Made by a program: the position numbers and the translations under genes | DNA from: an uncultured Prevotellaceae bacterium | Lineage (GTDB): Bacteria > Bacteroidota > Bacteroidia > Bacteroidales > Muribaculaceae | NCBI GenBank assembly: GCA_900316835.1 | Contig: ONEL01000002.1 | Location: 37,976-101,975 of the forward strand | Reading direction: 5' to 3' | Length of the DNA stretch: 64,000 bases | Shown here: positions 333 to 17,344 of the stretch, piece by piece | Position numbering within the stretch: the stretch's first letter is position 1 | How the letters are laid out: each line of letters opens with the position of its first letter | The notes under the pieces: model-generated | The model's input: only the letters and a program-made list of their open reading frames with translations | What the model was told of the DNA's origin: nothing | The model's database searches: none

Positions 333-992
333 TTATCCCTCAAGGTTGATTCCCATGATGACATAAGCGATGAAGAAGAGTGCCACAGCAATGAGTGTGA
401 TGATGAAGCATCCGCTAGTGCTGTGAATGCTGAACTTGCTGTCGCTATTGTTGTTCTTGCGGTTCTTACCCGTGATTTTGCGTGAGTTTGTGGCCATGTG
501 ATGAGGTGTAGATGATTGGGGAATAGTAGTGCGAGATGGGATTGTGGTGGTGCGATAGGGTGGTGGAGAAGATGCTGTGCGACGTGGGGGTGGCACCACT
601 TTAACAAAGTTGCCGCACTTGGGACAGAAATTTGCCCCTTCACGCAAGAACGCCCCGCACTGCTTGCAATAGCGCATCACGGCATCGGTGTGATGTGGCA
701 ATGCCGGTGGCGCAGCGGGAGGTGGCGGGGCTGAAGGGGGAGGCGGTACCTGTGCGGGCTCGCTAGAGGGTTGCACAGTGGTGCTTGTGGCATCATGCGA
801 TGGTGGCACAATGTCATCGCCGCTAGCGGTGTCACTGTCCTGCTGGGTAGAGTCGAGGTTAGAGTTCCTTGAAGGCACGTCAACGTCGATTGCCTCTAGG
901 CACTGCGGGCACACCAGGTGTCCTTGCAAGTTCTCAATTTCCTCGATAGAGACGTCGATATGTTTCCCACACTCGGGGCAGAATAGATGCAT
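333..992 (-). CDS. double zinc-ribbon protein with a Pro-rich linker and a C-terminal TM anchor
   Basis: 219-aa ORF. It has CPECG...CPQC at the N-terminus and a second ribbon, CKQCG...CPKCG, mid-protein. Low-complexity PPPPSAPPPPAAPP stretches are present. The hydrophobic tail is CFIITLIAVALFFIAYVIMGI. Confidence 0.6.
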   Translation of the reverse strand: MHLFCPECGKHIDVSIEEIENLQGHLVCPQCLEAIDVDVPSRNSNLDSTQQDSDTASGDDIVPPSHDATSTTVQPSSEPAQVPPPPSAPPPPAAPPALPHHTDAVMRYCKQCGAFLREGANFCPKCGNFVKVVPPPRRTASSPPPYRTTTIPSRTTIPQSSTPHHMATNSRKITGKNRKNNNSDSKFSIHSTSGCFIITLIAVALFFIAYVIMGINLEG

Positions 993-1081: not shown

Positions 1082-2356
1082 TTAAGCGTAGTGAACTGTG
1101 GCTTTTACCACAATGTGCCACTTGCCGTTTTCGAGCTGTGCGCGACCAGCGCGGTCGGTAACGATGCGTGACTTGCCGGCAGTTGACTGAATGTCGTTGC
1201 CCGAGCAAGCGCGAGTGAGGGCATCGCCAGGCATGAGCAGTGCCAGTTTGTGCACTTCTTCCTTGTTGATGACAGTGAACGAGCCACTCTTGCCGTCCAT
1301 GGTGGTGAGCTCAAAAATTGAGTTGCCAGGCTCGTAGGTAGCTGCCGAGCGAGAGAAATTGTCATCCTCGTCGGGCTTTGCCATGAACAGGATGCGTGGC
1401 TCTCCAAAGGTGTTCTTTGGCTCTTCCTTAACTGCCACGGGCTGCTCTTTCTTGGGCTCTTCGCGTTTGGGTTCTTGTCTCTTGGGCTCGGCAGGACGCT
1501 CATTGTGCTTCTCTTCACGAGCATTCTTCTCGCCAAAGTCAATCTTCTTGGTAGCAACTGCGGCACCAGCGTCGCTCAGCTTGTTATCGTGCTTGCCGGC
1601 AGGCTTGTGTGGGCGGTGCTCAGCCTCACCCTGACCCTTGAGAGTAGAACGCATCTTGTCGAGTTGCTTTTGCATGTTCTTGATGTCGTCGTTGAGGTCG
1701 TGCATGATAGCCTGATTCTCCTTGCGGGCCTGCATTGCCAGGAAGGTGCCAATGGCGCCCAGCGCAAGCCCCAGGATAGTAAGCAAATACAGGAATCCGT
1801 GACCGCTGTGGCCACCATCTTCCTTCTTCTCCTCGGCATTATTCTCCTGAGCGTTTTGAGCGGTGGCGGCAGTGCTGTCGGCATTGTTTACTACTGTAGC
1901 ATTACCTGCTTGAGCAGTAGCAGGAGCGGGCTCTCCGGCAGGAGTAGCACCCACTTCGTCGCCAGTGTGAGAAGCGTTATATTTCTCCACATCACGCTTC
2001 ACTCCATTCTTGAGCACGGCACCTTTCTCATACTCACCCGCGATGGTAGCGAGCAACTTGTCCATGTCGCCACCTTCGTTTTCATGAGCTTTGAGCTTGT
2101 CGTAATAGGTTACCCATTTAGCCTTGCTACCGTAGAGCACGCGCAAGTCGTCGAGAGTGTAGTTTTCGTTGGTGCGAGAAATCACCTTGTCCTCGGCCTG
2201 GGCAAATCCCAGGTCGGTAGCAATCCACTGGGCTCCCACAGCCAGACCGTGGTTCCATTGTCCTTGCGATAAAGGTTTAGCGCCATCTTGGGCTTTGAGC
2301 CCCATTGTGGTCATGCTAGCCATGACACACACAAGTAGTAAAAGAACTTTTTTCAT
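1082..2356 (-). CDS. hypothetical bitopic membrane protein (signal peptide, mid-protein TM, K/E-rich charged linker, C-terminal globular domain)
   Basis: 424-aa ORF. The signal peptide is MKKVLLLLVCVMASMTTMGLKAQ and the TM helix is FLYLLTILGLALGAIGTFLAM. A long EEKHNERPAEPKRQEPKREEPKKEQP charged tract follows. It sits 59 nt downstream of the ASKHA gene on the same strand. Confidence 0.6.
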   Translation of the reverse strand: MKKVLLLLVCVMASMTTMGLKAQDGAKPLSQGQWNHGLAVGAQWIATDLGFAQAEDKVISRTNENYTLDDLRVLYGSKAKWVTYYDKLKAHENEGGDMDKLLATIAGEYEKGAVLKNGVKRDVEKYNASHTGDEVGATPAGEPAPATAQAGNATVVNNADSTAATAQNAQENNAEEKKEDGGHSGHGFLYLLTILGLALGAIGTFLAMQARKENQAIMHDLNDDIKNMQKQLDKMRSTLKGQGEAEHRPHKPAGKHDNKLSDAGAAVATKKIDFGEKNAREEKHNERPAEPKRQEPKREEPKKEQPVAVKEEPKNTFGEPRILFMAKPDEDDNFSRSAATYEPGNSIFELTTMDGKSGSFTVINKEEVHKLALLMPGDALTRACSGNDIQSTAGKSRIVTDRAGRAQLENGKWHIVVKATVHYA

Positions 2357-2415: not shown

Positions 2416-5400
2416 TCACACTGTTCTTGAGATTACCTCATTGCACAGGTTTTTCAAGAGGTTGTGGCGTATGATGCCGATGATGGGGTAGAAGAATGGC
2501 ACGTCCTCGATGGGTTCGTCGCCCTCGTAGCGCCCCTTGAGGTAGTTCCCAATGCCAGCGGTGAGATAGTTTCCAATGTCGTCACCTAGCACACTGGTAA
2601 AGATTTTGAACACCTTGTTGTCGATGCCAAACTCGTCCTTGGTAACATTGTCGCACAGCCCTATGAAGAACTCGTTGAACTTGTTGACTTGCTCAATGAG
2701 CTGGTCACGTGTCTCAATTTCGTATACACTCTTGATGGTCAATGGCTTGTCGCCAATCATCGAGTAACAGTATTTCATGGCGTTGACATTGCGTGGTGTG
2801 AGCTGTCGCACGTCCACGTTGCCGTCCATGCGCAGAGTCTCGAGCCTGATGCCACCGCGACATGTGATTTGCTTCGGGCTCTTGTGCTCAATCTTGATGG
2901 AGAACCGCTCGGTGTATTGCTTGCCGAAGACGCGTTCCAGAATGAGCTGTGTGAATTCCTCCACCTGATCCTTGCTGCCCAAGATGTTGAGAATCTTGGA
3001 ACCAGTACCGCTGAAGTAGATTTGCTTGGGCATCTCGTAGTCGCGTGCTCGCATCGACTGGGCAATGTAGTAGATGATAGCGGCGTAGAAGTACATAAAG
3101 ATGAGCTTGCGTTGCTGGTCGTTGCGCAATAGCGTGTTGTAGCTGTAGATGTTGCGGTCTACCTCGCGCAGATTGCGCAACTGCTCCACGTTCTCTATTG
3201 AGAAGAGGAAGGCGTTGACATCTTGCGAACGCTTGCGCTTGAGCACGTCTTGCAGAATGCTGTTGAGGTAGGAGATGTCGCTGTTCTTGGAAATCAACCG
3301 CTTGAAATACTCGCCGTAGTGGCGGATGAGAGGGTTGTTGTCGGCATCACGCTCGGTGAATGCGTCGCCAAAGATGGCATCGCCGGCAAAGCGGAACGAC
3401 GATAGTGCCACAGGCACAGTGTCGAGGCGATTCTCGGTGGGTTGATAGATAACAGTGTCGGTGGTGCCGCCACCAATGTCGATCGACACAAAACTGCCAC
3501 CGCTCACGTCATCGCCCTTGTAGAAATAGGCTGGCGCGATGCTCTCGGGGAGGGCTTGCAAGTGGCTGGTGTCGTCGCCGAAATAGGTGTGGTAAAGCTC
3601 GTTCCACGTGTCGTCGAGCTTGCGACGGTCGCTGCCGCCCATGCTCACGGGGAAGAAGTAGACGATGTTGGTGCGGTTGAGGTCGCCGTTCTCGAGTAGC
3701 ACTTTGGCTTTGATTAGCAATACCAGCTCGCGCAGGAACTCGCGTGAGAGTGTGATGTCGCCCATCCACTTGAGGTTGGTGGTGATGTCGTAGCCGTCGA
3801 AGTACTGGCGTTCGTAGAGGAACGGAATATTGATATCGCCAAAGAGTTTGTGCCCGCCTGTGCTGACAGCATTGCGTGCCAAGGCACTGCGCAATGGGAA
3901 TCCGTACACGTTGTCTATGTCGCTGGGCAGGAATTCCACGCGTTGTAGCTGGTCGGCAAAGAGTAGCGTGCCGCGCTTGAGCAGCGATGCTATGAGCACC
4001 TGATGCTCGCCATGGGCAAACTCGAGGGTTTGCGCGTCGTTACCACGCTCGCTCCACTCTACATGGCTATTAGTAGTACCAAAGTCGACGGCGAATATCA
4101 GTTCCTTGCTACTTGCCACATAGGGTTTCCACAATGGCACGATGTAGCCCGTGAAGGCACCCGACGGAGTTTCAATGTTGGCTTGCACAAAGTCGAACGA
4201 GCCTTCCAGGTCATAATAGGCAGTGGTGTAACTGCTTTGTGAGCGCACCTTGTCGCTGCACTTAATCCTCTCTTGTGTGAGCCCGTCGTTAAAGAACTCG
4301 AGCGTAGCTTTGCCTCCATCAATCATGGTGAAGAGCTGCACTGTGTAGTCGTCTTTATAGTCGGTGCGCACAAAGGGGAAGATGGCGGTGGAGAGCACCA
4401 CATTAGTGATAATGCGCCCGGTGCCACGCTTCTCGTCGAAGTGCCACGAGGGGTCGTCGATGGGATAGTAGTTGCGAGTGAGCTCAATAAATCGCTTCTT
4501 GAGCGGTATGCGCAAGGTTACATTAACTGAGCCATCGCTCAGCTCTTCCATCTCCATCATGTTGCGACCATGCACCTGGCGTGTGACATCGGCAGCGTTA
4601 AAGTATTTAAAAAACTCCTGCGTCAATGGCAACAAGTAGCCATTGCGGCTCACCATAGCCTTGTTGATGATATTGCCATTGAAGAAATGGGCATCGTCGA
4701 CAGGGCCTGAGAGGCGTATGAGTGTGTCTTGCAAGAAGTCGCCAGTGGTGAGGAACGGGTACTCGATGCTTGTGTCGGGCAACTTGCGCTTGGCTACGGG
4801 GATGCCGCTAGTGTAAACCTGCGTTGAGCTGTCCCATTCCTTGTCGATGTAGATATAGTGGTCCACACTGCCATTGAAATTGTTGCGTAGCACAAGTGGC
4901 AGTGTCTCGCCCACCTCGCGAGTGGGAGCGATGACAAAGTCGCTGGTGGCGGCTGCGGTGCGTATGTCGCGAGCGCGCTTGTGGTAGAAGCGTGCTCCTA
5001 GCACTGTCACCTCGTCGTCGCCCACAAAGGGGTCAAACTCCAGGTCAAGCCTCTCAACCAGTCGTGGCGCAAGCTCTTGGCTCAGAGCCTCGAGGTTGGG
5101 AACAACCTGGGTGAGACGGTTGTAGAGAGCCGGTTTCTCCTGCATGATGATGTCCTTGTTCTTGAGCATGTAGTCGTAGACTCCCTTGATGGTCATGCGC
5201 AAGGTGGGGAACGCGTTGAAGAGCATGAACATGTAGTAGACAAAGTCCTCGTCGCGTTGCCACAGGTCGCGAGTCTCGCTGTCGAAGAGCGAGATGCCCT
5301 GCTCTACCTTGATGCCCTGGATGGGTTGCTCGCTCTCGCGGGGCACGGCAATGGTGAGCGATGATGGTGATGTGGCGCCTATCACCTGGCTGTTCCACAG

Positions 5401-5847
5401 CAGGATATACCAGTCGGTGAGCATGTTGAAGTTATACTTGGTGTCGCTGGCGAGGAAGAGTTCCAGTGTCTCGCCGTAGAGACGATGCTCGGGCTCGCTC
5501 TTGAGGCGCGCTATTTGTTCCTCGCGATTCCAGCGCACGATGTGGAGATAGTCCTTGTGGTTCTCAAAGTCGAAGAAGAGCTGAGCCACGTCGAGCGCAT
5601 TCGACACCAGTCGCTTGTCCATCATGGTTCCTGCCAGGCGTGCGTTGCTTGCCAGGTGCTCAAAGGCATTTTTCACCAGGTCGAGTTGTGCAAACGGACT
5701 TGGAATGGCGGTGCGTGGATTCTCGCTCAGGCCACCATTTGGGTCCTTGATTTGCTTGATATCATCGTCGACATAGGGCGCTACTGGAATCCAGTCCTGC
5801 GCACTAGTCTTGGTGGTTTTGTTATTATAGGATAGTACTTGACTCAT
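2416..5847 (-). CDS. 1143-aa protein with a C-terminal actin/Hsp70-fold (ASKHA) ATPase-like domain; the N-terminal ~580 aa are of unknown fold
   Basis: Phosphate-1-like motif IFAVDFGTTNSHVEW (~aa 584-598). Phosphate-2-like motif FVSIDIGGGTTDTVIY (~aa 786-801). Adenosine-like motif IYFSGTGSKILNIL (~aa 943-956). Compare Hsp70 DLGTTNS / DLGGGTFD / GGSTRIP. Confidence 0.65.
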   Translation of the reverse strand: MSQVLSYNNKTTKTSAQDWIPVAPYVDDDIKQIKDPNGGLSENPRTAIPSPFAQLDLVKNAFEHLASNARLAGTMMDKRLVSNALDVAQLFFDFENHKDYLHIVRWNREEQIARLKSEPEHRLYGETLELFLASDTKYNFNMLTDWYILLWNSQVIGATSPSSLTIAVPRESEQPIQGIKVEQGISLFDSETRDLWQRDEDFVYYMFMLFNAFPTLRMTIKGVYDYMLKNKDIIMQEKPALYNRLTQVVPNLEALSQELAPRLVERLDLEFDPFVGDDEVTVLGARFYHKRARDIRTAAATSDFVIAPTREVGETLPLVLRNNFNGSVDHYIYIDKEWDSSTQVYTSGIPVAKRKLPDTSIEYPFLTTGDFLQDTLIRLSGPVDDAHFFNGNIINKAMVSRNGYLLPLTQEFFKYFNAADVTRQVHGRNMMEMEELSDGSVNVTLRIPLKKRFIELTRNYYPIDDPSWHFDEKRGTGRIITNVVLSTAIFPFVRTDYKDDYTVQLFTMIDGGKATLEFFNDGLTQERIKCSDKVRSQSSYTTAYYDLEGSFDFVQANIETPSGAFTGYIVPLWKPYVASSKELIFAVDFGTTNSHVEWSERGNDAQTLEFAHGEHQVLIASLLKRGTLLFADQLQRVEFLPSDIDNVYGFPLRSALARNAVSTGGHKLFGDINIPFLYERQYFDGYDITTNLKWMGDITLSREFLRELVLLIKAKVLLENGDLNRTNIVYFFPVSMGGSDRRKLDDTWNELYHTYFGDDTSHLQALPESIAPAYFYKGDDVSGGSFVSIDIGGGTTDTVIYQPTENRLDTVPVALSSFRFAGDAIFGDAFTERDADNNPLIRHYGEYFKRLISKNSDISYLNSILQDVLKRKRSQDVNAFLFSIENVEQLRNLREVDRNIYSYNTLLRNDQQRKLIFMYFYAAIIYYIAQSMRARDYEMPKQIYFSGTGSKILNILGSKDQVEEFTQLILERVFGKQYTERFSIKIEHKSPKQITCRGGIRLETLRMDGNVDVRQLTPRNVNAMKYCYSMIGDKPLTIKSVYEIETRDQLIEQVNKFNEFFIGLCDNVTKDEFGIDNKVFKIFTSVLGDDIGNYLTAGIGNYLKGRYEGDEPIEDVPFFYPIIGIIRHNLLKNLCNEVISRTV

Positions 5848-5908
5848 AGTTAGTTGTCAGTTGTCAGTTATGAGTTGTCAGTTGTTGTCAGTTATGAGTT
5901 ATTCGTTA

Positions 5909-7438
5909 TCAGTTGATATTGTCGTATCGCTCGGTGATGATTTTCTCGGCGGCAGTGTAGAAGAGGTCCATGAGCTTAAGCTCGGCATTACTGCCATAGC
6001 GGTTGTTGTCACGGCTCAGGCGGTTCATCTCGGCCTTAAACACGTCGTTGTCCACCTTCTTGTAGCCGAAGAGCGACTTCTTGGTGACAACCTTGTGGAT
6101 GGCTTTAGCCATTTCCATCTCACCCTCGTTGAAGAGGGTGACGTGGCGGCGATTGTGCAGCAACTCGGTGAGCCACTCGATGTAGCTGTCGAAGAACTGC
6201 TGTGTGAGCACGCGGTAGAATTGTGTTCCTGTGAACTCGCGTGTAATCTTGGGGGCATCTTCGGTAAATCCCTGGCCTATCATGCCGTTGAGGCCTGTGC
6301 GCAGGAAGATGTAGAGCAGGTGAAGCTTCACTAGTGGGCGGTACACGAGTTGGCGTGTCTCCTGCCCAAAGCTTGAGAAATCAACAAAGTCGGTGTCTTT
6401 CTCCAGACCATACTCAAACGCCTTGGTAGCCAGAGGTTCGCCGGTAACGGGGTCGGAGAGTTCGCTATCGCTCAAGCTCAAGAACTTGAACGGAGCCATT
6501 GCTCCCACCAGCTCAATGAGGTGGGCGGGGTCGTGCTGGTCGCGCTTGTCGCCAGGGTCGTAGGCATAGGGTGCGTTGTGTCCGTGGTCTCCAAGATAGA
6601 AGATGGCGTTCACAGCGTTGCGTCCGTTGCCAGTGAGGGTGTTATTATAGTATTCCAGCGCGCTCTGGGTTTTTACCACAAAGTCGGCATTGTCGATGCG
6701 CTTGTCTTTCTTGTCCTCGCTTTCCATGAGCGAGAAGTAGGGAAGCACCGTCAAGCCACCTATTGGTGCTCGCTGCAGGAAAGCCTTGTTCTTGGCATCG
6801 ATGTTGCGTGCTTGGCGAATGTTCTTCACGATAATGGGAAATCCCGCGGCGCCAGTGCCACCAAAGATACTGCTGATGAAGAAAATGCGGTCACCGTCGG
6901 CAAAGACATTGGCAAAGGCTTTGAATTCGTTGCTGTCCTTCACGCCGTTGAGCGCCACGCTGCCTATGTTGGGCGAGCCCACAAAGCCAATGCTCATCTT
7001 GTTCTCCAGCTGATAGTCGGCAAAGAGTAGCGATGTCAAAGCCTGGTTAGGCTCGTTCATGGTGTTGTAGCTGATGAAGTCGCGAAACTTGTAGTTCTCG
7101 ACTGCCGCCAGGTTAAAGATGAATGAGTCGTCGAGGGGCACTTGGCTGCTCGACACCACCTCCTTGAGGCTCGAAATCTTGGTGGCGAAGAAACCGTTAG
7201 CGTTGGCGTTCTTGCCATAGAGTTTTTCACGCAAGGTGCTATAGGCACTCAGCAGTCGCTCAGTGCGCTTGAGGTCGGCATTCGACTTGTGCGGGTCAAT
7301 GATGATGGGCACAATTTCCACATCTTGCAGTGGTTTTCCATTGGCGTCGACCGGGCGCACGCCTGCGGCACATAGCATGATCATCGACTTGAGCACTCGC
7401 GAGCCAGTTCCTCCTATAGCAAATACAAATAGTTTCAT
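5909..7438 (-). CDS. tubulin/FtsZ-superfamily-like GTPase (Tubulin_2-like)
   Basis: 509-aa ORF. N-terminal Gly loop VFAIGGTGSRVLKS (aa 5-18). Signature-like loop FFISSIFGGTGAAGFPIIV (aa ~185-203). Compare FtsZ GGGTGTGAAPV and tubulin GGGTGSG. No signal peptide or TM helix. Confidence 0.55.
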   Translation of the reverse strand: MKLFVFAIGGTGSRVLKSMIMLCAAGVRPVDANGKPLQDVEIVPIIIDPHKSNADLKRTERLLSAYSTLREKLYGKNANANGFFATKISSLKEVVSSSQVPLDDSFIFNLAAVENYKFRDFISYNTMNEPNQALTSLLFADYQLENKMSIGFVGSPNIGSVALNGVKDSNEFKAFANVFADGDRIFFISSIFGGTGAAGFPIIVKNIRQARNIDAKNKAFLQRAPIGGLTVLPYFSLMESEDKKDKRIDNADFVVKTQSALEYYNNTLTGNGRNAVNAIFYLGDHGHNAPYAYDPGDKRDQHDPAHLIELVGAMAPFKFLSLSDSELSDPVTGEPLATKAFEYGLEKDTDFVDFSSFGQETRQLVYRPLVKLHLLYIFLRTGLNGMIGQGFTEDAPKITREFTGTQFYRVLTQQFFDSYIEWLTELLHNRRHVTLFNEGEMEMAKAIHKVVTKKSLFGYKKVDNDVFKAEMNRLSRDNNRYGSNAELKLMDLFYTAAEKIITERYDNIN

Positions 7439-7513
7439 CTTTCTTATAAGTAAAGTAAGTTGAATAGTGAGTAGAAAGTAACTATCACCGTTTTTTTTAT
7501 GCTACTTTTCAAA

Positions 7514-7521
7514 CAAAGGTA
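7514..7521 (-). promoter_or_regulatory. Bacteroidota -7 box (TACCTTTG on the minus strand) for the tubulin-like/ASKHA operon
   Basis: Plus strand reads caaaggta, the reverse complement of TAnnTTTG. It lies ~76 nt upstream of the ATG at 7438, within a 313-nt AT-rich intergenic region. Confidence 0.4.
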
Positions 7522-7751
7522 ATAAAAATCAACAATACCAACAATAAATTAAGTTTTTTTGTAAAACTTGGTTGATTTTGTGACTGTTCAGCGAACTTTG
7601 AATTCTAAGCTTTTTATCAAACAAACTTGGGTGGAGTTTAACAATTTTTGGAAAGCCATGTGTTCCCTATAACATTATTGTTTTTTTGTTTGATGAAGGC
7701 TATCTTGCTGAATAGTACTTGATTATTATCGCCTGAAGTTAAGAATACACG

Positions 7752-8192
7752 TTACTGCGGAATGGGGGTGTGGCGACAGTTGCTGCTCCACCAGCGCATC
7801 GAGAACGACGCGATAGTGAAAAGAAGGGCCGACACTATCACGTTGTAGACGGCAAATGTGACCGATGCCGTGGGGTAGTCCATGCCCTCGAGCAGGTTGC
7901 CCACTACCACGAAGCACACCACTGGCGTGAGCACGCTCGCCACGCCAAGCATCGACATCCAGTGATACCAGCGGTCGAACTTCACCGAGTTTATCACATA
8001 GTAGTAGAGCGCTGCGATGCCCCACGTCATGGCAATGGCGATGATGGCGACAATGCCGTAGGCGTCGTTGTTGTGCATCGCCTCACTAAAGCCACTGCTG
8101 TAGTACAATGCCTCATACACCGGCTCACTAAAGAACCCAAAGAGCACACTAATAACGGCTCCAATCACTAGAAATATTACTTTATCTCTCAT
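7752..8192 (-). CDS. small integral membrane protein (about 4 TM helices)
   Basis: 146-aa ORF that is almost entirely hydrophobic segments (VIFLVIGAVISVLFGFF, IVAIIAIAMTWGIAALYYYVI, LGVASVLTPVVCFVVVG, VIVSALLFTIASF). It sits 24 nt downstream of the lipoprotein gene. Confidence 0.65.
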   Translation of the reverse strand: MRDKVIFLVIGAVISVLFGFFSEPVYEALYYSSGFSEAMHNNDAYGIVAIIAIAMTWGIAALYYYVINSVKFDRWYHWMSMLGVASVLTPVVCFVVVGNLLEGMDYPTASVTFAVYNVIVSALLFTIASFSMRWWSSNCRHTPIPQ

Positions 8193-8216: not shown

Positions 8217-9686
8217 TTAATCTTCAAGTTTGACTACAATATTTGCGTATGAATTGTTGCCTGCCGAGAAGGCGTCGTAGATGCCTTGCAGGAAGCGGTT
8301 GAGACCGAAGGTTGTGGTGGAGAATGTGGGGTCGGAAGGATTGGTGTCGGTTGTTGCCGACGACTCGTTAATCCACTGTGGGAAGTGGTTGTTGAGGGTG
8401 ATAGAGAGCTGGTCGCGCGAGATGTTAAACTTGCCCTTGGCGGTGATGAGGTGAGTCATGCCGTCGAGGTAGGTGCGGTTGTTGTTGGTGACGTCGGCTG
8501 GCACAATGGGGCGGATAGAGATCTCAAAACCGCATTGTGACTGCACGGCATAGTTGGCAGTGTTGGTAAGGAAGGCATCGTCCTTGTTGAGAGCCTTGAG
8601 GTTGGCTGCCAGGGTGAAGCACAATACCCCCGTCTCGCGGTCGCCCTCACAGTGAGTGAGGCTGCTGGCGTCGCCATGGTCGGGGCGGAAACGTCCCACG
8701 TTGTCCTTCCAGTCGGGCACGAGCTTGAAGTTGATATTAGCTTGCGCCTGGTTGAAGCGGTAGCTGTTGACGGCGCCACTGGGGTGGAGGAACTTGGCGT
8801 AGTTGTCGTCGGCTGCCATGCGGTCGATGGTAGCGGCGTCGGCAACGATAATGAGATAGAACGGCCGCTTGCCATTATAGCTGAAAGGCGCTCCGTTGTA
8901 GGGGTAATACTGTCCGTTATAGTCGCCCATGAGCTTGTTGACGATGATGGATTTTCCCTTGTAGGTCTTGAAAATAGAGGTTGCCACGCTGTTCTCCTCG
9001 TTGAGTATTTTCTCCACGCTCACGTCGGCAGTGTTTTGTGGCGAGTAGATGAGGTCGGTTACCAGTACACTCACGTTGCCTGGCTTTTGTGCTTGTATAA
9101 TTTTCTCGAAGATGAGCTTGAAATCGGTGTAGCTGGCATTGCCGGTGCCGCTTGTGCTCTGGTAGATGTTTCGGTCCTGCAGGAACGAGTCTACGGTGCC
9201 ACTGTAGGGGTAGATGTTGTCGTTCACGATGTTGATCTTTGTACCCTCCTTGCTTGGGAAGAAGTTGATGAGGTCGTTCACCGCCTTCTTGAGTTGCCCG
9301 CCACCTCCGGGGGTGTCGTAAGGTATCATTGAGCCACTGCGCTCAAAGTAGACGGTAAGCGTGAGCTCTTTCACGCCATATCCCTTGATGTTCCACGACA
9401 TGGGCGGACGCAGGTTGCTACCCACCTCGTTGATGAACTTGCTCAGTGCATCAACATTGATTTCGCCAGCCTTGGTGAGGAACTCGCCATAGCTCTCGGG
9501 ATTGCTCTTGATAATGGAGCAAATGGAGTCGTAGCGCGCCTGAGTGGTGTCGCCCTCGATTAGTGCTCGCTTGATTGCTTTCTCCAGTCCTCCGCCCCCG
9601 CAAGCCACGAGGGTGAGGCATGTGGCAACGGTTACAACTATTGCCATCAGTTGTGAATATACTCGTCTCATTGTGTTCATAGTCAA
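8217..9686 (-). CDS. lipoprotein with a vWA-like domain (variant MIDAS ERSGS)
   Basis: Lipobox LTLVAC with Cys at ~aa 29. The beta-strand plus metal-site-like motif is LTVYFERSGSM (aa ~110-120), compared with vWA DxSxS. A later hydrophobic strand is VSVLVTDLIYS (aa ~205-215), compared with vWA vvllTDG. Confidence 0.5.
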   Translation of the reverse strand: MTMNTMRRVYSQLMAIVVTVATCLTLVACGGGGLEKAIKRALIEGDTTQARYDSICSIIKSNPESYGEFLTKAGEINVDALSKFINEVGSNLRPPMSWNIKGYGVKELTLTVYFERSGSMIPYDTPGGGGQLKKAVNDLINFFPSKEGTKINIVNDNIYPYSGTVDSFLQDRNIYQSTSGTGNASYTDFKLIFEKIIQAQKPGNVSVLVTDLIYSPQNTADVSVEKILNEENSVATSIFKTYKGKSIIVNKLMGDYNGQYYPYNGAPFSYNGKRPFYLIIVADAATIDRMAADDNYAKFLHPSGAVNSYRFNQAQANINFKLVPDWKDNVGRFRPDHGDASSLTHCEGDRETGVLCFTLAANLKALNKDDAFLTNTANYAVQSQCGFEISIRPIVPADVTNNNRTYLDGMTHLITAKGKFNISRDQLSITLNNHFPQWINESSATTDTNPSDPTFSTTTFGLNRFLQGIYDAFSAGNNSYANIVVKLED

Positions 9687-9753: not shown

Positions 9754-9761
9754 CAAAACTA
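9754..9761 (-). promoter_or_regulatory. candidate -7 box (TAGTTTTG on the minus strand) for the lipoprotein/4-TM pair
   Basis: Plus strand reads caaaacta, the reverse complement of TAnnTTTG. It lies ~68 nt upstream of the ATG at 9686. Confidence 0.35.
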
Positions 9762-11900: not shown

Positions 11901-14732
11901 ATGCGTGTAAAATTAAGTAAGATTATTAAAGATTTGAATGTTGGACAACAGACTATCAAGGACTTCTTTGAAAAAAAGAAGATTGATATAGATGTTACCC
12001 CCAACACCAAGATTGGTGAGGACGTGCTGGATATCCTCATCAAGGAATTTAAACCCGACATGGAGCAGAAACTCAAGTCGGAATACCTCACTAGTGCCCG
12101 GCAAAAGGAGAAAGAAAAGACCAAGCAAGCCGAAGCCGAGGATGCTGCACCCAAGCAACCCGAGGAAGCAAAAACCGAGATCGAGCTACGCAAGCCCAAG
12201 GTGATAGGGAAAATTGACCTCGACGCTGCGGGTAAGCCAGCCAAGAAAGAAGAGGCTCCCAAGCAGGAAGGGGCTCCCAAGCAGGAGGACGTGCCCGCTG
12301 TGGAACCCGAAGAGAAACCTGCACCAGCCGCACCAGTCGAGGAACCAGTACAGGAAGTTCAACCTCAAGCTCAAGAAGAAACTCAGCCCATTGTTGAGGA
12401 AACTCCTCAAGAGCCTGAAGTAGCTGCACCTCAAGCCCCTGTGGCTCAGGAAGAACCCGCTGCTGCCCAGCCCGTTCAGAGCAGTGAGCCCGAGGAAAGT
12501 AAAGAAGAGATTTTCACCACAGGAGTGCCCTCGTTGAAGACCAGCATCAACGTGGTGGGCAAAATTGACCTCTCGGCAATCAACCAGTCAACTCGTCCCA
12601 AGAAGAAGACTAAGGAAGAGCGTCGCCAGGAACGCCTGGCAAAGGAGAAAGCCCGCCAGGGTGAGGATGGCGTGAAGAAAAAACGCCGTCGCATAGGCCG
12701 TGAGAAGGTTGATATTGAAAAAGCCGCCCAGCAAATTCAGAGCAATGGCGGTGGTGGCAAAAACGCAAAGAAAGATAACGAGTCTAGCAAGAAGAAAGAT
12801 AAGAAAGCTAAACGCCCATTGCGCCCTCAAATTAATGAGGAGGACGTTCAGCGCCAAGTGAAGGAGACACTTGCTCGTCTCACCACCAAGAAGCAGAACA
12901 TGGGTGCCAAGTGGCGTCGTGAGAAACGCGAAGCCGTGCGCGAGGAGGAGAGCAAGGAGGCTGCATTGCAAGCTGCCGAGCGCAAAATCCTCAAGCTCAC
13001 CGAGTTTGTTACCGCCAACGACCTGGCGATGATGATGAACGTGCCCATCAACAAGGTGATAGGCACATGCATGAATCTGGGTGTAATGGTTTCAATCAAC
13101 CAGCGCCTCGATGCCGAGACTATCAACATTGTAGCCGAGGAGTTTGGGTTCAAGACTGAATATGAGAGTGCCGATGTGGTAGAGGCAATACATGAGGAGG
13201 AAGACCGTCCCGAGGACTTGCAGCAGCGCCCGCCAGTGGTTACCGTGATGGGTCACGTGGACCATGGTAAGACCTCGTTGCTCGACTACATTCGCAAGAG
13301 TAATGTGATTGCCGGTGAGGCTGGTGGTATCACACAGCACATTGGTGCCTACAATGTGAAGCTGCCTAACGGTCGCCGCATCACCTTCCTCGACACTCCT
13401 GGTCACGAGGCGTTTACTGCCATGCGTGCCCGTGGTGCCAAGGTTACCGATATCGTTATCGTTATTGTCGCCGCCGATGACAATGTGATGCCTCAAACCA
13501 AGGAGGCTCTCAACCATGCCTCGGCAGCTGGAGTACCCATCGTCTTCGCTATCAACAAGATTGATAAAGATGGAGCTAACCCTGAGAAGATTAAGGAAGA
13601 GCTCGCTAACATGAACTACCTCGTCGAGGACTGGGGTGGTAAGTATCAAAGCCAGGACATCTCGGCCAAGAAGGGTATTGGCGTGGAGGAACTCATGGAG
13701 AAGGTACTCCTTGAGGCCGACATGCTGGACCTCAAAGCCAACCCCGACCGCAAGGCTACTGGCTCAATCATTGAGTCATCGCTCGACAAGGGACGTGGCT
13801 ACATTGCCACTGTGCTCGTTGATAACGGCACGCTGAGAGTGGGTGACATTGTGCTCGCCGGTACTCACTATGGTAAGGTAAAGGCTATGTTCAACGAGCG
13901 CAACCAGCGCATCAAGGAGGCAGGACCATCGTCACCGGCGCTGATACTGGGCTTGAATGGCGCTCCCACTGCTGGCGACAAGTTTAATGTGATGGACACT
14001 GACCAGGAGGCGCGTCAAATTGCCAACAAGCGCGAGCAACTGCAACGCGAGCTTGGCCTTCGCACTCAAAAACGTGTCACTCTCGAGGACATTGGTCGTC
14101 GCCGTGCCCTAGGTGACTTCCATGAGCTCAACGTCATCGTTAAGGGTGATGTGGACGGCTCGATTGAGGCCCTGGGCGACTCGCTCATCAAGCTCTCTAC
14201 TCCTGAGGTTCAGGTGAACGTTATTCACAAGGCTGTGGGTGCCATCAGCGAGAGCGATGTTACTCTGGCTGCGGCTAGCGATGCCTATATCATTGGCTTC
14301 CAGGTGCGTCCATCGGCCGACGCTAAACGTCTTGCCGCTCAAGAGGGTGTCGACATCCGCATCTATTCTATCATCTACGATGCTATTGAGGAAATCAAGA
14401 GCGCCATGGAAGGTATGCTCTCGCCCGACATCAAGGAAGAAGTTATTGGTAGTGCCGAAGTTAAAGAGGTTTACCACATCAGCAAGGTGGGTACCATTGC
14501 CGGTGCCATGGTCAAGGAAGGTAAGCTCAAGCGTGGATGCAAGGTGCGCCTCATTCGCGATGGTATCGTGCGTTTCACCGGCAACCTGGCATCGCTCAAG
14601 CGCTTCAAGGACGACGCTAAGGAGGTTGCCAGTGGCTATGAGTGCGGATTTAGCATTCAGAGCTACAACGACATCGTGGTTGGCGACATCGTCGAAGCCT
14701 TCGAGGAAATCGAGGTTCAGAAGACACTTTAA
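11901..14732 (+). CDS. infB: translation initiation factor IF-2
   Basis: 943 aa. G-domain motifs are [17 protein letters not shown] and NKIDK. The N-terminal region is low-complexity and K/E/P/Q-rich. Confidence 0.97.
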
Positions 14733-14769
14733 AAGCTCTTCTAGCAACCTTACATCAATAATAAACATT

Positions 14770-14818
14770 GGGTCTAGACAGTCTAGTAATTCTAGAGTTT
14801 CTAGACCCTTTCTTTTAA
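14770..14818 (+). terminator. intrinsic terminator of infB built from four 9-bp TCTAGA units
   Basis: GGGTCTAGA (14770..14778) pairs with TCTAGACCC (14800..14808), followed by TTTCTTTT. The internal units are TCTAGACAG TCTAGTAAT TCTAGAGTT TCTAGACCC. Confidence 0.65.
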
Positions 14819-14827
14819 GAAATAATC

Positions 14828-15325
14828 ATGATGATTTACTACCTGAACATAGGTTCTAATCTCGATGACCGCGAGGGAAACTTGTGGGCTGCCGACTTGC
14901 GTCTGTCACTCGACTTGGGGCTAGTGCTAGCACGCTCAGCTATCATTGAAACCCCGGCATGGGGCTTCGAGAGCGACAACGCTTTTCTTAACATGGGCAT
15001 TGCCGTGGAATGTGCGCTTGAACCACTTGAGGTGCTCAACGTCATTCACAACATTGAGCACGAACTCAACATGGGGCAAGGACACCGTGACAGTGAGGGC
15101 AACTACATTGACCGCCTCGTCGACATCGACATCATGGCTATCGACAACCTTGTTATCGATTTGCCACAGCTCACAGTGCCGCACCGTCACTTGCCGCACC
15201 GTGAGTTTTTCCTCCGTCCCATGGCTCAGATAGCTCCCCACTGGCTCCACCCCACTCTCCATCTCACCGCCCAGCAAATGCTTGATGAGCTCGATGTTAA
15301 TCAAGAAATGACCCCAAAGAGTTAG
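14828..15325 (+). CDS. folK: 2-amino-4-hydroxy-6-hydroxymethyldihydropteridine diphosphokinase (HPPK)
   Basis: 165 aa. The pattern is YLNIGSNL..REGNL...TPAWGFES..FLNM...IEHELN...IDIDIM...LTVPHRHLPHREFFLRPMAQIAP, typical of HPPK. Confidence 0.8.
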   Translation: MMIYYLNIGSNLDDREGNLWAADLRLSLDLGLVLARSAIIETPAWGFESDNAFLNMGIAVECALEPLEVLNVIHNIEHELNMGQGHRDSEGNYIDRLVDIDIMAIDNLVIDLPQLTVPHRHLPHREFFLRPMAQIAPHWLHPTLHLTAQQMLDELDVNQEMTPKS

Positions 15326-15381
15326 ATAGTAAACTCCGTGGGGTCATTTCGTTTTAATTGCTGCAAGTGGCAGGAAGATAG

Positions 15382-15768
15382 TTACTTCTTCTTTGCCTCT
15401 TGAGGTTGGGGTTGTTCTTGTTCGAGAACTTTTTGCTTGGCATCGAGCGCCGCGTTAATCTTGGCGCGATACTCCTTATCAAAGACGGCGCGCACCGAGT
15501 CGGTGACAATGGCTTGCTCGTCGGTAGTAGAGTCGGTCTTGTACTTGTAGGCCTCATAGAAGACGGTCTCCAACGAGTCGAGGCGCACCTTGAGTGCGTC
15601 ATAGTCTTCGCGTGTGGTTACCTGTGCCGTGTCAATAGCCGCTTCAAGGCTCTTGTTGAGCTGGGTAGCCTCTTGTTGCACATCGAAGTTGAGTTTGTTA
15701 TCCGAACCCGAGCATGACGATATAATCGTTGCTAGTGTTGCCAAAGATAAAAATAAATACTTTTTCAT
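15382..15768 (-). CDS. hypothetical lipoprotein
   Basis: 128 aa. Lipobox LATIISSC. The mature part is helical and charged. Confidence 0.55.
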   Translation of the reverse strand: MKKYLFLSLATLATIISSCSGSDNKLNFDVQQEATQLNKSLEAAIDTAQVTTREDYDALKVRLDSLETVFYEAYKYKTDSTTDEQAIVTDSVRAVFDKEYRAKINAALDAKQKVLEQEQPQPQEAKKK

Positions 15769-15793
15769 TGCTAATCAATTTATAATAAGATTA

Positions 15794-17344
15794 TTACTTA
15801 GCTACCTTCTCCAAGCGCTTGAGCATTGCAAACATGAAGATTGCCGCAATCACGCACAGGGCGATGAGGATAGCCCAGTTGTACATGAGCGGAATTTTGT
15901 TCCACAACATTGATGGAATGGAGCTCAGGTAGTTACCTATGGCGGTAGCCACAAACCAGCCTCCCATCATGAGACCCTTGTACTTGGGGGGAGCCACCTT
16001 CGACACAAAACTGATGCCCATGGGCGAGAGGAACAGCTCGGCGATAGTGAGTGTGAAGTAGGTGCCTATGAGCCACGATGGCGACAACACACTCTGCGTG
16101 CTATCTCCCAAGTCCATGGGAGAGGTGAGGCCTATAGATGCAAGGGTTATAACGCCAAATCCCACTGCCGCCAAAAGCATACCCCAGGCAATGCGAGCAG
16201 GAGCACTAATGGCATGATTGCGTGTCGCCAAAACGCCAAAGAAGAGGATACTGAACGGTGTGAGGGCCACAACAAAGAATGGATTAAACTGCTGGAAATC
16301 GCTGGGCTGTGCCATAGTGGGGTTGTCCATTCCCAGGAATAAGACTATTGCTAAAGCCACAAGCGCTACTGTAGACACACCACAAATGATGCGCGTCTTT
16401 TTCTTCTCGCTTTGGAATGTGGCAAAACCGGTGTAAATGGCAAGCGCAATTAATGCCAAAGAGAAAATGTTGAACCAGATGCGCATGCCTCCAGAGACAG
16501 AAAGATTGGTGTACTTCTTAGCAAAGAAAGTGAGTGCCGAGCCATTCTGATGGAAGGCCATCCAGAAGAAGATTACAACGGCAAACACCAGCAACAATGC
16601 AGTGATGCGCTCTTTGGTTTGGGCCGGGGTGAGTTCTTCCACAGTAGCATTGTCTTCTTTAGCTTGCTTTGCAGTCTTCATAGCGTCTTTAAACCAGCTT
16701 TTGCAAGCAAAGTAGATGACAGCACTTAACACAAGCGACACACAAGCCACACCAAAGCACAGTCCGTAACCTCCATACAGAGCTTGCAGGTAGTCGGGCG
16801 AGACATTGGCGGCATCGTAGGTGAAGCCATAGTTACTAAGGTATTGATTAGTAATCCACTTTGCCATTGATGGCGCAAACATGGCGCCAATGTTGATAGC
16901 CATGTAGAACAGTGAGAATGCGTCGTCGCGACGGTCGGCATATTTGGGATTGTCATAAAGGTTACCTATCATTACCTGCAGGTTACCTTTAAACAGACCT
17001 GTGCCAAGCGACACACAAGCCAGACCAGCATACATAGCGACAAGGCCCGTGGTATCGGCATCTGTGGGTATCGCCAGTCCCAAGTAGCCCAGGAACATTG
17101 TGAGCATACCTATGGTAACACACTTGCCATAGCCAATTTTGTCGGCCAGCATGCCACCAAAGAGCGGTGCAAAGTAAACCACAGCAAGGAATATGGCATA
17201 GACTTGTCCTGCCTGAGCCTCGCTCCATCCAAATTTTGCCTGCATAAACAGAGCAAAAATCGCAAGCATCGTGTAGTAGCCAAAGCGTTCGCCGGTGTTG
17301 GCAAGCGCCAGGGCAAACAAGCCTTTAGGTTGATTTTTAAACAT
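15794..17344 (-). CDS. POT/PTR2 family peptide:proton symporter
   Basis: PTR2 signature LANTGERFGYYTM and a multi-TM MFS profile. The start is moved to the ATG at 17344 (MFKNQPKGLF, parallel to the paralogue's MFKGHPKGLI), because the longer track ORF would read through the hairpin at 17381..17412. Confidence 0.85.
   Translation of the reverse strand: MFKNQPKGLFALALANTGERFGYYTMLAIFALFMQAKFGWSEAQAGQVYAIFLAVVYFAPLFGGMLADKIGYGKCVTIGMLTMFLGYLGLAIPTDADTTGLVAMYAGLACVSLGTGLFKGNLQVMIGNLYDNPKYADRRDDAFSLFYMAINIGAMFAPSMAKWITNQYLSNYGFTYDAANVSPDYLQALYGGYGLCFGVACVSLVLSAVIYFACKSWFKDAMKTAKQAKEDNATVEELTPAQTKERITALLLVFAVVIFFWMAFHQNGSALTFFAKKYTNLSVSGGMRIWFNIFSLALIALAIYTGFATFQSEKKKTRIICGVSTVALVALAIVLFLGMDNPTMAQPSDFQQFNPFFVVALTPFSILFFGVLATRNHAISAPARIAWGMLLAAVGFGVITLASIGLTSPMDLGDSTQSVLSPSWLIGTYFTLTIAELFLSPMGISFVSKVAPPKYKGLMMGGWFVATAIGNYLSSIPSMLWNKIPLMYNWAILIALCVIAAIFMFAMLKRLEKVAK

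Follow-up and report, generated by a model that had tools for sequence, protein, structure and literature searches.

The question raised by two adjacent genes of an uncultured Prevotellaceae bacterium (assigned to the Muribaculaceae in GTDB) is whether a tubulin/FtsZ-like GTPase and an actin/Hsp70-fold ATPase form a cytoskeleton-like module of their own, as had been proposed in an earlier inspection of the DNA made without database searches (hereafter, the sequence-only reading). The genes lie in a 64,000-nucleotide stretch of contig ONEL01000002.1 (assembly GCA_900316835.1, positions 37,976 to 101,975 of the forward strand), referred to here as the window. The two open reading frames (ORFs), 5909..7438 (509 amino acids, aa), named TubL, and 2416..5847 (1143 aa), named BigA, are both on the minus strand; together with the five motifs attributed to them and the 61-nucleotide (nt) gap separating them, they were found exactly at the positions given in that reading. 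The analysis reported below bears out the linkage of the two genes and both folds, so that a module with two nucleoside triphosphatases (NTPases) does exist; it is not independent, TubL and BigA being the middle genes (C and D) of a five-to-six-gene cassette, A-B-C-D-E(-F), and not a free-standing pair. This cassette, which is widespread, is best classified among the FtsZ-like systems associated with vWA (FtsZl1/Tubulin_2), of which it represents a variant not described before, and its use in conflict or defence is the reading that we tentatively favour.

Sequence and structure of TubL

The glycine-rich motifs AIGGTGSRV (aa 7-15) and SSIFGGTGAAGFP (aa 189-201) of TubL fall in the loops T1 (IGGTGSR, aa 8-14) and T4 (FGGTGAAG, aa 192-199), and a T3 loop (GFVGSPNIG) was recognized as well. 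The IGGTG of the T1 loop is of the FtsZl1 type (xGLGGTG), not of the FtsZ (GGGGxN) or tubulin (GQCGNQ) type. In 68 relatives, sharing a mean identity of about 35%, residues G9, G10, G12, R14, G151, G154, G159, G193-G196, G199 and P201 are invariant, and because they are so across sequences this diverged, the motifs are not due to chance.

When the window proteins were compared alone with Pfam, NCBIfam and the PDB, only sub-threshold matches were retrieved for TubL and BigA, and profiles of close homologues gave no gain over the single sequences, diverse alignments being needed. TubL alone matched Pfam Tubulin (PF00091) with E 0.01 and 16.6 bits (cut-off 33) and Tubulin_2 (PF13809) with E 0.016 and 14.9 bits (cut-off 27). 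Among the 68 relatives, 61 matched Tubulin_2 (best E 8.5e-8) and 60 matched Tubulin at E<=0.01 (best 5e-7). The precomputed PF13809 matches are full-strength for one relative (P0024) and weak or faint for the cyanobacterial orthologues, one of which is named 'tubulin-like doman-containing protein' in RefSeq. An exhaustive search with the TubL profile retrieved 1,923 clusters (50% identity) at E<=1e-3, 547 of them at E<=1e-30, and nearly all of the 150 best representatives measure 460-528 aa.

The best matches of the TubL family profile in the PDB were CetZ/FtsZ proteins, aligned on the T4 loop, and in hhalign the segment from T3 through T4 aligned with Escherichia coli FtsZ. The AlphaFold2 (AF2) model of TubL has a mean predicted local distance difference test (pLDDT) of 77 and a predicted template-modelling score (pTM) of 0.82; about 45 of its top 50 Foldseek matches in the PDB are TubZ, FtsZ, CetZ or tubulin, with a probability of about 1.0 and TubZ at the top. 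The model continues past aa ~345 as a helical bundle, with a helical C-terminal domain at aa ~359-504 and no long coiled coil. The tubulin/FtsZ fold read from the sequence is thus borne out by the Pfam matches of the family, the Foldseek search, the profile matches and hhalign, and TubL belongs to the tubulin/FtsZ superfamily, nearest to the FtsZl1/Tubulin_2 branch and with its GTP-binding half only. As a side observation, the C-terminal helices (aa ~358-483, window ~5990-6367) gave five non-significant profile matches (E 2.6-3.2) to the F-BAR domain of PACSIN, a membrane-curvature module.

Sequence and structure of BigA

In BigA, the motifs AVDFGTTNS (aa 586-594), IDIGGGTTD (aa 789-797) and YFSGTGS (aa 944-950) were verified, and the complete series of ASKHA nucleotide-binding motifs follows in order: DFGTTN (aa 588-593), PESIAP (aa 767-772), DIGGGTTD (aa 790-797) and SGTGS (aa 946-950). 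Residues D588, G590, T591, E768, S769, A771, D790, G792-794, D797, G947 and G949 are invariant in 15 relatives, including the cyanobacterial ones, down to an identity of 17%, and for this reason a chance origin of the motifs can be dismissed. The AF2 model (pLDDT 82) matched the Hsp70 nucleotide-binding domain in Foldseek with E 8.4e-8 and probability 1.0 and MreB3 with E 4e-7, in a total of 282 matches at E<=1e-3; viral Hsp70 homologues were also matched in BFVD. A diverse BigA profile retrieved from the PDB FtsA (2.3e-4), MreB (8e-4), Hsp70 (6.6e-3) and an actin. BigA therefore carries an ASKHA domain, as the sequence-only reading had assigned on its motifs, and the assignment is now sustained by the structural search, the diverse profile and the motif invariance.

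This domain does not make of BigA an Hsp70, an FtsA or a MreB proper, since it scores below the thresholds of these families and their specific domains were not recognized. Pfam FtsA scored 11.9 bits (threshold 31.8) and NCBIfam HscA 11 bits (threshold 743), the Pfam scan returned no match to HSP70 or MreB, and neither the model nor that scan revealed an Hsp70 substrate-binding domain after the ASKHA domain. The SrfB-like families, suggested earlier as a possible affiliation, found no correspondence, no SrfB match being returned by the Pfam scan at E<=1. Along the protein, a helical region (aa ~50-300) and a beta-rich region (aa ~430-570) precede the ASKHA domain (aa ~580-1010), after which the C-terminus is helical. 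Conservation of the first 580 aa extends to cyanobacteria (e.g., IPSPFA and TSPS), and in the whole-protein search against BFVD this region gave only weak matches to Ig-like beta-sandwiches.

Organization of the cassette

The cassette, entirely on the minus strand, is arranged in the window as follows, in the direction of transcription:

9754..9761, minus strand: candidate -7 promoter element (Bacteroidota) of the whole cassette, TAgtTTTG, intergenic, 68 nt upstream of gene A
8217..9686, minus strand: gene A, 489-aa lipoprotein with lipobox and MIDAS-like motif
7752..8192, minus strand: gene B, 146-aa integral membrane protein with four predicted transmembrane (TM) helices
7439..7751, minus strand: B-TubL spacer, 313 bp, AT-rich, containing TAccTTTG at 7514..7521
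5909..7438, minus strand: gene C, TubL, 509 aa, divergent tubulin/FtsZ-type GTP-binding domain followed by a helical C-terminal domain
5848..5908, minus strand: TubL-BigA spacer, 61 nt, about eight copies of a 7-nt unit
2416..5847, minus strand: gene D, BigA, 1143 aa, ASKHA ATPase domain
1082..2356, minus strand: gene E, 424 aa, with signal peptide, TM helix, coiled coil and conserved C-terminal domain
333..992, minus strand: gene F, 219 aa, with two zinc ribbons, proline-rich linker and C-terminal TM anchor

The topology predicted from hydropathy is that of a lipoprotein (A), a protein with four TM helices (B) and two proteins with one TM helix each (E and F), TubL and BigA being soluble and devoid of TM helices. 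No Walker A motif occurs in any of the six proteins, and the Pfam and NCBIfam scans disclosed no GTPase family among them; no DNA-binding (TubR-like) family was disclosed by the Pfam-type scans either.

Gene A is probably, on the evidence of its sequence motifs, a periplasmic protein with a vWA-like domain. It carries an invariant lipobox cysteine (Cys29), a sequence ERSGSM (aa 115-120) resembling the metal ion-dependent adhesion site (MIDAS), T187 and a strand LVTDLIYS with D211. Its cyanobacterial orthologues show in the alignment the canonical DGSGSM MIDAS motif, and hhalign matched it to a cyanobacterial 467-aa protein with a probability of 83% and E 8.8e-6. In most of the cyanobacterial loci examined the gene is transcribed divergently. 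In another assembly, whose BigA is 100% identical, three or four ORFs (251, 196, 184 and 100 aa) are called in place of gene A (L098:3-2148), a fragmentation due either to assembly frameshift errors or to a pseudogene.

Gene B adjoins TubL in all the Bacteroidales loci and in the mobile-element loci, its counterpart in the distant copy L084, described below, being recognized with E 4e-15. In gene E, a signal peptide and a low-complexity segment are followed by a TM helix (aa 188-206), a coiled coil and a C-terminal domain of about 105 aa (aa ~320-423), the last being conserved in Prevotella proteins of ~186 aa and matched by hhalign (97.5%, E 5e-12) to a 331-aa protein of L084. The PADLOC model PD-T4-6 matches with E 1.9e-6 the low-complexity, TM and coiled-coil part of the protein (aa 129-321), and this match is probably compositional. 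Gene F, which matches Zn_ribbon_3, DZR and Zn_Ribbon_1 of Pfam and ends with a TM helix at aa 195-213 (tail anchor), follows gene E in Muribaculaceae loci and is absent in Prevotella. A gene for a retropepsin-like aspartyl protease (Asp_protease_2), absent from the window, is located between E and F in L099 (14604-15140) and also in L037, an arrangement seen in one Muribaculaceae lineage.

Concerning the spacers, the pair had been credited with a promoter of its own on the basis of a TAnnTTTG box. The box TAccTTTG is indeed present at 7514..7521 of the minus strand, within the B-TubL spacer, but the window contains 45 such boxes versus 35 expected, a number reached by 5 out of 100 shuffles; the motif is not enriched above chance, and this applies to the boxes at 7514..7521 and 9754..9761 alike. 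In addition, the pair lies in the middle of the cassette, and the spacer is specific to this genome, spanning 313 bp here versus 40 bp in the 98%-identical L001 and 24-120 bp in other loci, so that the attribution is not upheld. A ~270-bp AT-rich stretch of 7439-7751, absent from L001, may represent a small insertion or a promoter-bearing element, and 7439..7751 might serve as a promoter internal to the cassette. About eight tandem copies of the unit GACAACT/GATAACT (AGTTGTC/AGTTATC on the plus strand; window 5848-5915) make up the TubL-BigA spacer, and the tract is conserved in the close relatives L001, L004 and L005. These repeats might explain the insertion hotspot described below, or may act in translation control.

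Conservation and phylogenetic distribution

The synteny of the cassette was assessed by comparing the six proteins of the window, through tblastn, with 80 loci of species-representative genomes. The order A-B-TubL-BigA-E is fixed in Muribaculaceae and Prevotellaceae, including the cultured Hoylesella, Leyella and Prevotella, and BigA comes next after TubL in 78 of the 79 Bacteroidales loci with enough sequence. The same A-B-TubL-BigA order was found in 10 out of 11 IMG/VR contigs (TubL identity 32-44%), the eleventh ending at a contig edge. The adjacency of TubL and BigA was also found in five cyanobacterial replicons, the cassettes being located on plasmids in Gloeothece and Picosynechococcus and on chromosomes in Calothrix and Cylindrospermopsis. 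The co-conservation of the two genes, on which the sequence-only reading had made its proposal depend, therefore holds in Bacteroidales, in mobile-element contigs and in cyanobacteria. The intergenic gaps usually measure 0-120 bp, commonly 0-10 nt, or the genes overlap.

Overall, the scan of 185,579 species-representative genomes yielded at least 581 loci, and the search of 50,697 phage genomes not a single TubL relative. For the distant TubL representatives, hardly any taxonomic name was retrieved, the exception being one Cytophagaceae. The identity between two families of one order is 45% for TubL and 38% for BigA. BigA is homologous to the cyanobacterial copies with E 5e-11, and BigA-type proteins are widespread in Nostocales and Chroococcales. 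Two clearly different BigA variants of 1086 and 1097 aa (P0524 and P0530) are both labelled Cylindrospermopsis raciborskii, pointing to allelic variation or to a pair of paralogous cassettes within this species. The cassette proteins are all named 'hypothetical protein' in the databases, with the exception of the cyanobacterial TubL mentioned above and of a few cyanobacterial BigA relatives automatically labelled 'Molecular chaperone' or 'Ppx/GppA phosphatase' in UniRef.

Mobile elements, insertions and flanking genes

A distant copy of the cassette, L084, is immediately preceded by a Bacteroidota-type relaxase and a tyrosine integrase (L084:2710-5865); downstream (13861-16955) lie the genes of a 560-aa coiled-coil protein and of two members of the OmpA family, one of them with a MotB plug (MotB_plug/OmpA). 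The Gloeothece cassette is carried by a 47.5-kb mobilizable plasmid of the MOBP type.

In two Muribaculaceae-type genomes, a type II restriction-modification pair is inserted exactly at the TubL-BigA junction (L003:7028-9146 and L045:9283-11914). One pair is composed of a C5 methylase and a HaeIII-type endonuclease and the other of a D12 methylase and an AlwI-type endonuclease; the two are mutually unrelated, and both are co-oriented with the cassette. In one metagenome-assembled genome (L038:11527-20306), TubL is followed by a gene for a 1014-aa protein and by an RHS-repeat/DUF6443 toxin locus, and no BigA occurs within 10 kb of TubL. That the 1014-aa protein is a divergent BigA was rejected (hhalign E 0.52), and this locus may have arisen through replacement, through a third insertion at the junction or through an error of assembly.

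As regards the flanks, in the L098 assembly the region past the window start, downstream of gene F, encodes on the same strand a 206-aa protein with an FtsK gamma (DNA-binding) domain (L098:10069-10689), next to which lies a gene for a C10 peptidase with a dockerin domain.

Comparison with known systems

The mention, in the sequence-only reading, of FtsZ-like families sitting in operons with vWA and membrane proteins turned out to be the right lead, in agreement with the MIDAS-like motif of gene A. Operons of the type vWA-FtsZl1-(GTPase)-OmpA were predicted to act in membrane remodelling by Makarova and Koonin in 2010, and their FtsZl1 proteins likewise have no recognisable T6-H7/T7 elements or tubulin C-terminal domain (PMC2875224). 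The cassette shares with them a divergent GTP-binding domain with a GGTG-type T1 loop and without recognisable T6-H7/T7 elements or C-terminal tubulin domain, the association in one operon of a putative extracytoplasmic protein, here with a MIDAS-like motif, with membrane proteins, joined in some loci by OmpA/MotB-type genes, and the occurrence, in cyanobacteria and Bacteroidota, in genomes that also encode a normal FtsZ. As an example, the OmpA and MotB_plug/OmpA genes of L084 mirror the vWA-FtsZl1-B7-MotB operon of Cyanothece (PMC2875224). However, TubL is about 500 aa long and lacks a long coiled coil, whereas FtsZl1 measures ~900-1100 aa; the score of TubL does not reach the gathering threshold of Tubulin_2; a P-loop GTPase is missing from the cassette; and its constant partners, an ASKHA protein of ~1100 aa and a protein with four TM helices, are outside the listed families A1-A2 and B1-B9 (PMC2875224).

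Kaur, Burroughs, Iyer and Aravind (2020) described the DO-GTPase/GAP1-N2 systems as predicted conflict systems with modules of either tubulin plus vWA or HSP70 plus GrpE, and reinterpreted the FtsZl1-type operons as conflict systems (PMC7159879). In that work, the tubulin and HSP70 themes are explicitly non-overlapping; both are reported chiefly from Firmicutes and Actinobacteria, to which the tubulin theme is confined (PMC7159879). A tubulin-family protein, a vWA (here, a probable vWA-like) protein, an Hsp70-fold protein, membrane proximity, zinc ribbons and a predicted NTP-dependent assembly are common to those systems and to the cassette. Unlike them, which are defined by a DO-GTPase and a GAP1, the cassette has no Walker A in any protein, its ASKHA protein is not a bona fide Hsp70 and is not accompanied by GrpE, and the tubulin and ASKHA folds always occur together. 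The giant ASKHA protein, the four-TM protein and gene E, i.e., constant parts of the cassette, appear in neither PMC2875224 nor PMC7159879. In the literature searched, no description of the cassette or experiment on it was found, nor any experimental function for the FtsZl1-vWA systems predicted in 2010.

Two better-known systems can also be compared. As in FtsZ-FtsA, a tubulin-superfamily gene adjoins the gene of an actin-fold ATPase, bitopic coiled-coil membrane proteins are present, and FtsA is the best sequence-profile match of BigA; differently from FtsZ-FtsA, the gene order is reversed, TubL lacks the C-terminal domain and the T7 loop of FtsZ, BigA, with its 580-aa N-terminal region, is three times as large as FtsA, and both proteins miss the Pfam and NCBIfam thresholds. 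With TubZ/TubR and PhuZ the cassette shares the fact that TubZ is the top structural match of TubL and that relatives reside on plasmids, but it has no DNA-binding adaptor, its context is membrane and periplasmic, and it is absent from the phages searched. A role like that of phage PhuZ was accordingly dropped, given the absence of TubL relatives from the 50,697 phage genomes.

Possible function of the cassette

The reading that we favour, tentatively, is that TubL and BigA are the cytoplasmic NTPases of a mobile, envelope-anchored cassette of the FtsZl1 type, deployed as a conflict/defence device rather than as a housekeeping cytoskeleton. The folds and predicted topologies, nucleotide-binding motifs that are intact, a five-gene co-conservation and the carriage on mobile elements were observed; how the proteins interact, whether they polymerise, in which direction a signal would run and what the cassette does in the cell are what we infer. 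The periplasmic lipoprotein A, as extracytoplasmic input or anchor, would bind a ligand or partner through its MIDAS-like site, and the membrane proteins B, E and F would connect it to the cytoplasm. There, TubL might bind GTP and self-associate at the inner face of the membrane, and BigA might tether, bind or remodel the TubL assembly by means of ATP and of its large N-terminal region, following the logic of FtsZ-FtsA. The output would be a nucleotide-gated assembly at the envelope, and might consist in the containment of invaders or in an envelope response to them.

We lean slightly to conflict/defence over housekeeping because of the carriage on mobile elements, of the restriction-modification and RHS genes nested in the cassette and of its kinship with systems predicted to act in conflict (PMC7159879); the mobile carriage and the restriction-modification insertions suggest a conflict system at least as much as a cytoskeleton. 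Several observations weigh against this reading. No effector-type domain (nuclease, TIR, protease or pore former) is recognisable in the cassette, and A, B, TubL, BigA and F have no match in PADLOC-DB 2.0. The flanks in Muribaculaceae (the window genome and another genome) are made up of housekeeping or polysaccharide-utilisation genes. The identity of TubL tracks taxonomy and the cassette looks vertically inherited across whole families, a family-wide vertical inheritance being unusual for defence systems. Other weak points concern TubL and gene A. The Foldseek scores of TubL are weak (E 2e-3, template-modelling scores 0.2-0.43), and in its 68 relatives neither a conserved NxDxxD/E-like T7 acidic loop after the H7 equivalent (judged from sequence and secondary structure) nor, with the model also considered, a tubulin C-terminal domain is recognisable; for the lack of these two elements, an FtsZ-like polymerisation of TubL is not assured. 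Gene A has no Pfam VWA match, and its family profile retrieved from the PDB integrin alpha-M I-domains alone, with the MIDAS in register and at a non-significant E of 0.13-0.8.

Among the alternatives, the one put forward by the sequence-only reading, a housekeeping, cytoskeleton-like remodelling of the envelope, is possible and only somewhat less probable. According to it, TubL and BigA would form filaments or a tethered polymer resembling FtsZ/FtsA, anchored by A, B and E, and would serve, for instance, to maintain the envelope, to form vesicles or to carry out an accessory process akin to division. In its favour are the conservation of the cassette throughout whole families, apparently by vertical inheritance, and the lack of a recognisable effector; the conservation is broad and largely congruent with taxonomy, and the synteny is stable in Muribaculaceae, Prevotellaceae and many cyanobacterial chromosomes. 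The pairing of a tubulin-like with an actin-fold protein mirrors FtsZ-FtsA, and the best profile matches of BigA are FtsA and MreB. The housekeeping flanks of the window genome, the membrane remodelling proposed by Makarova and Koonin for the related FtsZl1 systems (PMC2875224) and the weak, non-significant F-BAR matches on the C-terminal helices of TubL point in the same direction. It is contrasted by the lack of a T7 loop and of a C-terminal tubulin domain in TubL, by a distribution that is patchy across phyla, with copies on plasmids and on an integrase/relaxase element, by the toleration of restriction-modification insertions inside the operon and by the fast evolution testified by the 45% (TubL) and 38% (BigA) identities between two families.

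The cassette might otherwise encode an alignment complex of a secretion system or surface structure, in which BigA would be a PilM/FtsA-like protein or an Hsp70-like chaperone at the cytoplasmic face of an envelope-spanning scaffold of lipoprotein, bitopic coiled-coil proteins and OmpA/MotB anchors, and TubL a GTP switch instead of a polymer. The composition does resemble that of PilM-N-O-P, in which an ASKHA protein of the cytoplasm is likewise combined with a lipoprotein and bitopic coiled-coil proteins; L084 has OmpA and MotB-like genes, and the Hsp70 nucleotide-binding domain is the best structural match of BigA. This explanation is nevertheless unlikely, considering that no secretin, PilB-type ATPase, pilin or recognisable cargo occurs in any locus examined and that BigA is devoid of an Hsp70 substrate-binding domain. 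A TubZ-like segregation or maintenance system of the carrier mobile elements, left as a relic on chromosomes, is very unlikely: it would agree with TubZ as the top Foldseek match and with the location of relatives on an integrative mobilizable element and on plasmids of cyanobacteria, but most copies are chromosomal, neither a TubR-like DNA-binding gene nor centromere-like repeats accompany them, three to four proteins of the cassette reside in the membrane or the periplasm and would be needless for DNA partition, and the phage genomes yielded no match. Lastly, the idea that the glycine motifs are a chance resemblance and that the proteins belong to neither superfamily, which the sub-threshold scores of the window proteins in every Pfam, NCBIfam and PDB sequence search might encourage, is highly improbable in the light of the family-wide Pfam matches, the two independent structure searches, the profile matches and the deep invariance of the motifs, and for BigA it is already refuted.

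It is also possible, and advanced here with some reserve, that A-B-TubL-BigA-E represents a distinct and still unnamed class of systems, in which an obligate membrane pair of a tubulin GTPase and an actin-fold ATPase would be controlled by a periplasmic MIDAS lipoprotein, acting, in gut Bacteroidales and cyanobacteria alike, either as a new mobile immunity against invaders that combines the two cytoskeletal folds or as an accessory divisome-like machine for remodelling.

Significance

To our knowledge, no bacterial system other than FtsZ-FtsA is based on obligately linked NTPases of the tubulin and actin folds, and no second obligate pairing of this kind was found in the literature searched. 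The cassette might therefore represent a second, independent and deeply conserved tubulin-actin pairing. Its carriers comprise abundant gut Bacteroidales (Prevotella and Muribaculaceae) and model-adjacent cyanobacteria, and the existence of a shorter and better-defined variant on small cyanobacterial plasmids and in cultured Prevotella makes the role of the vWA-linked FtsZ-like proteins directly testable. Should the cassette serve in defence, it would be a case of a defence system made of cytoskeletal folds; should it be a housekeeping one, major gut taxa would possess an envelope machine so far unrecognized.

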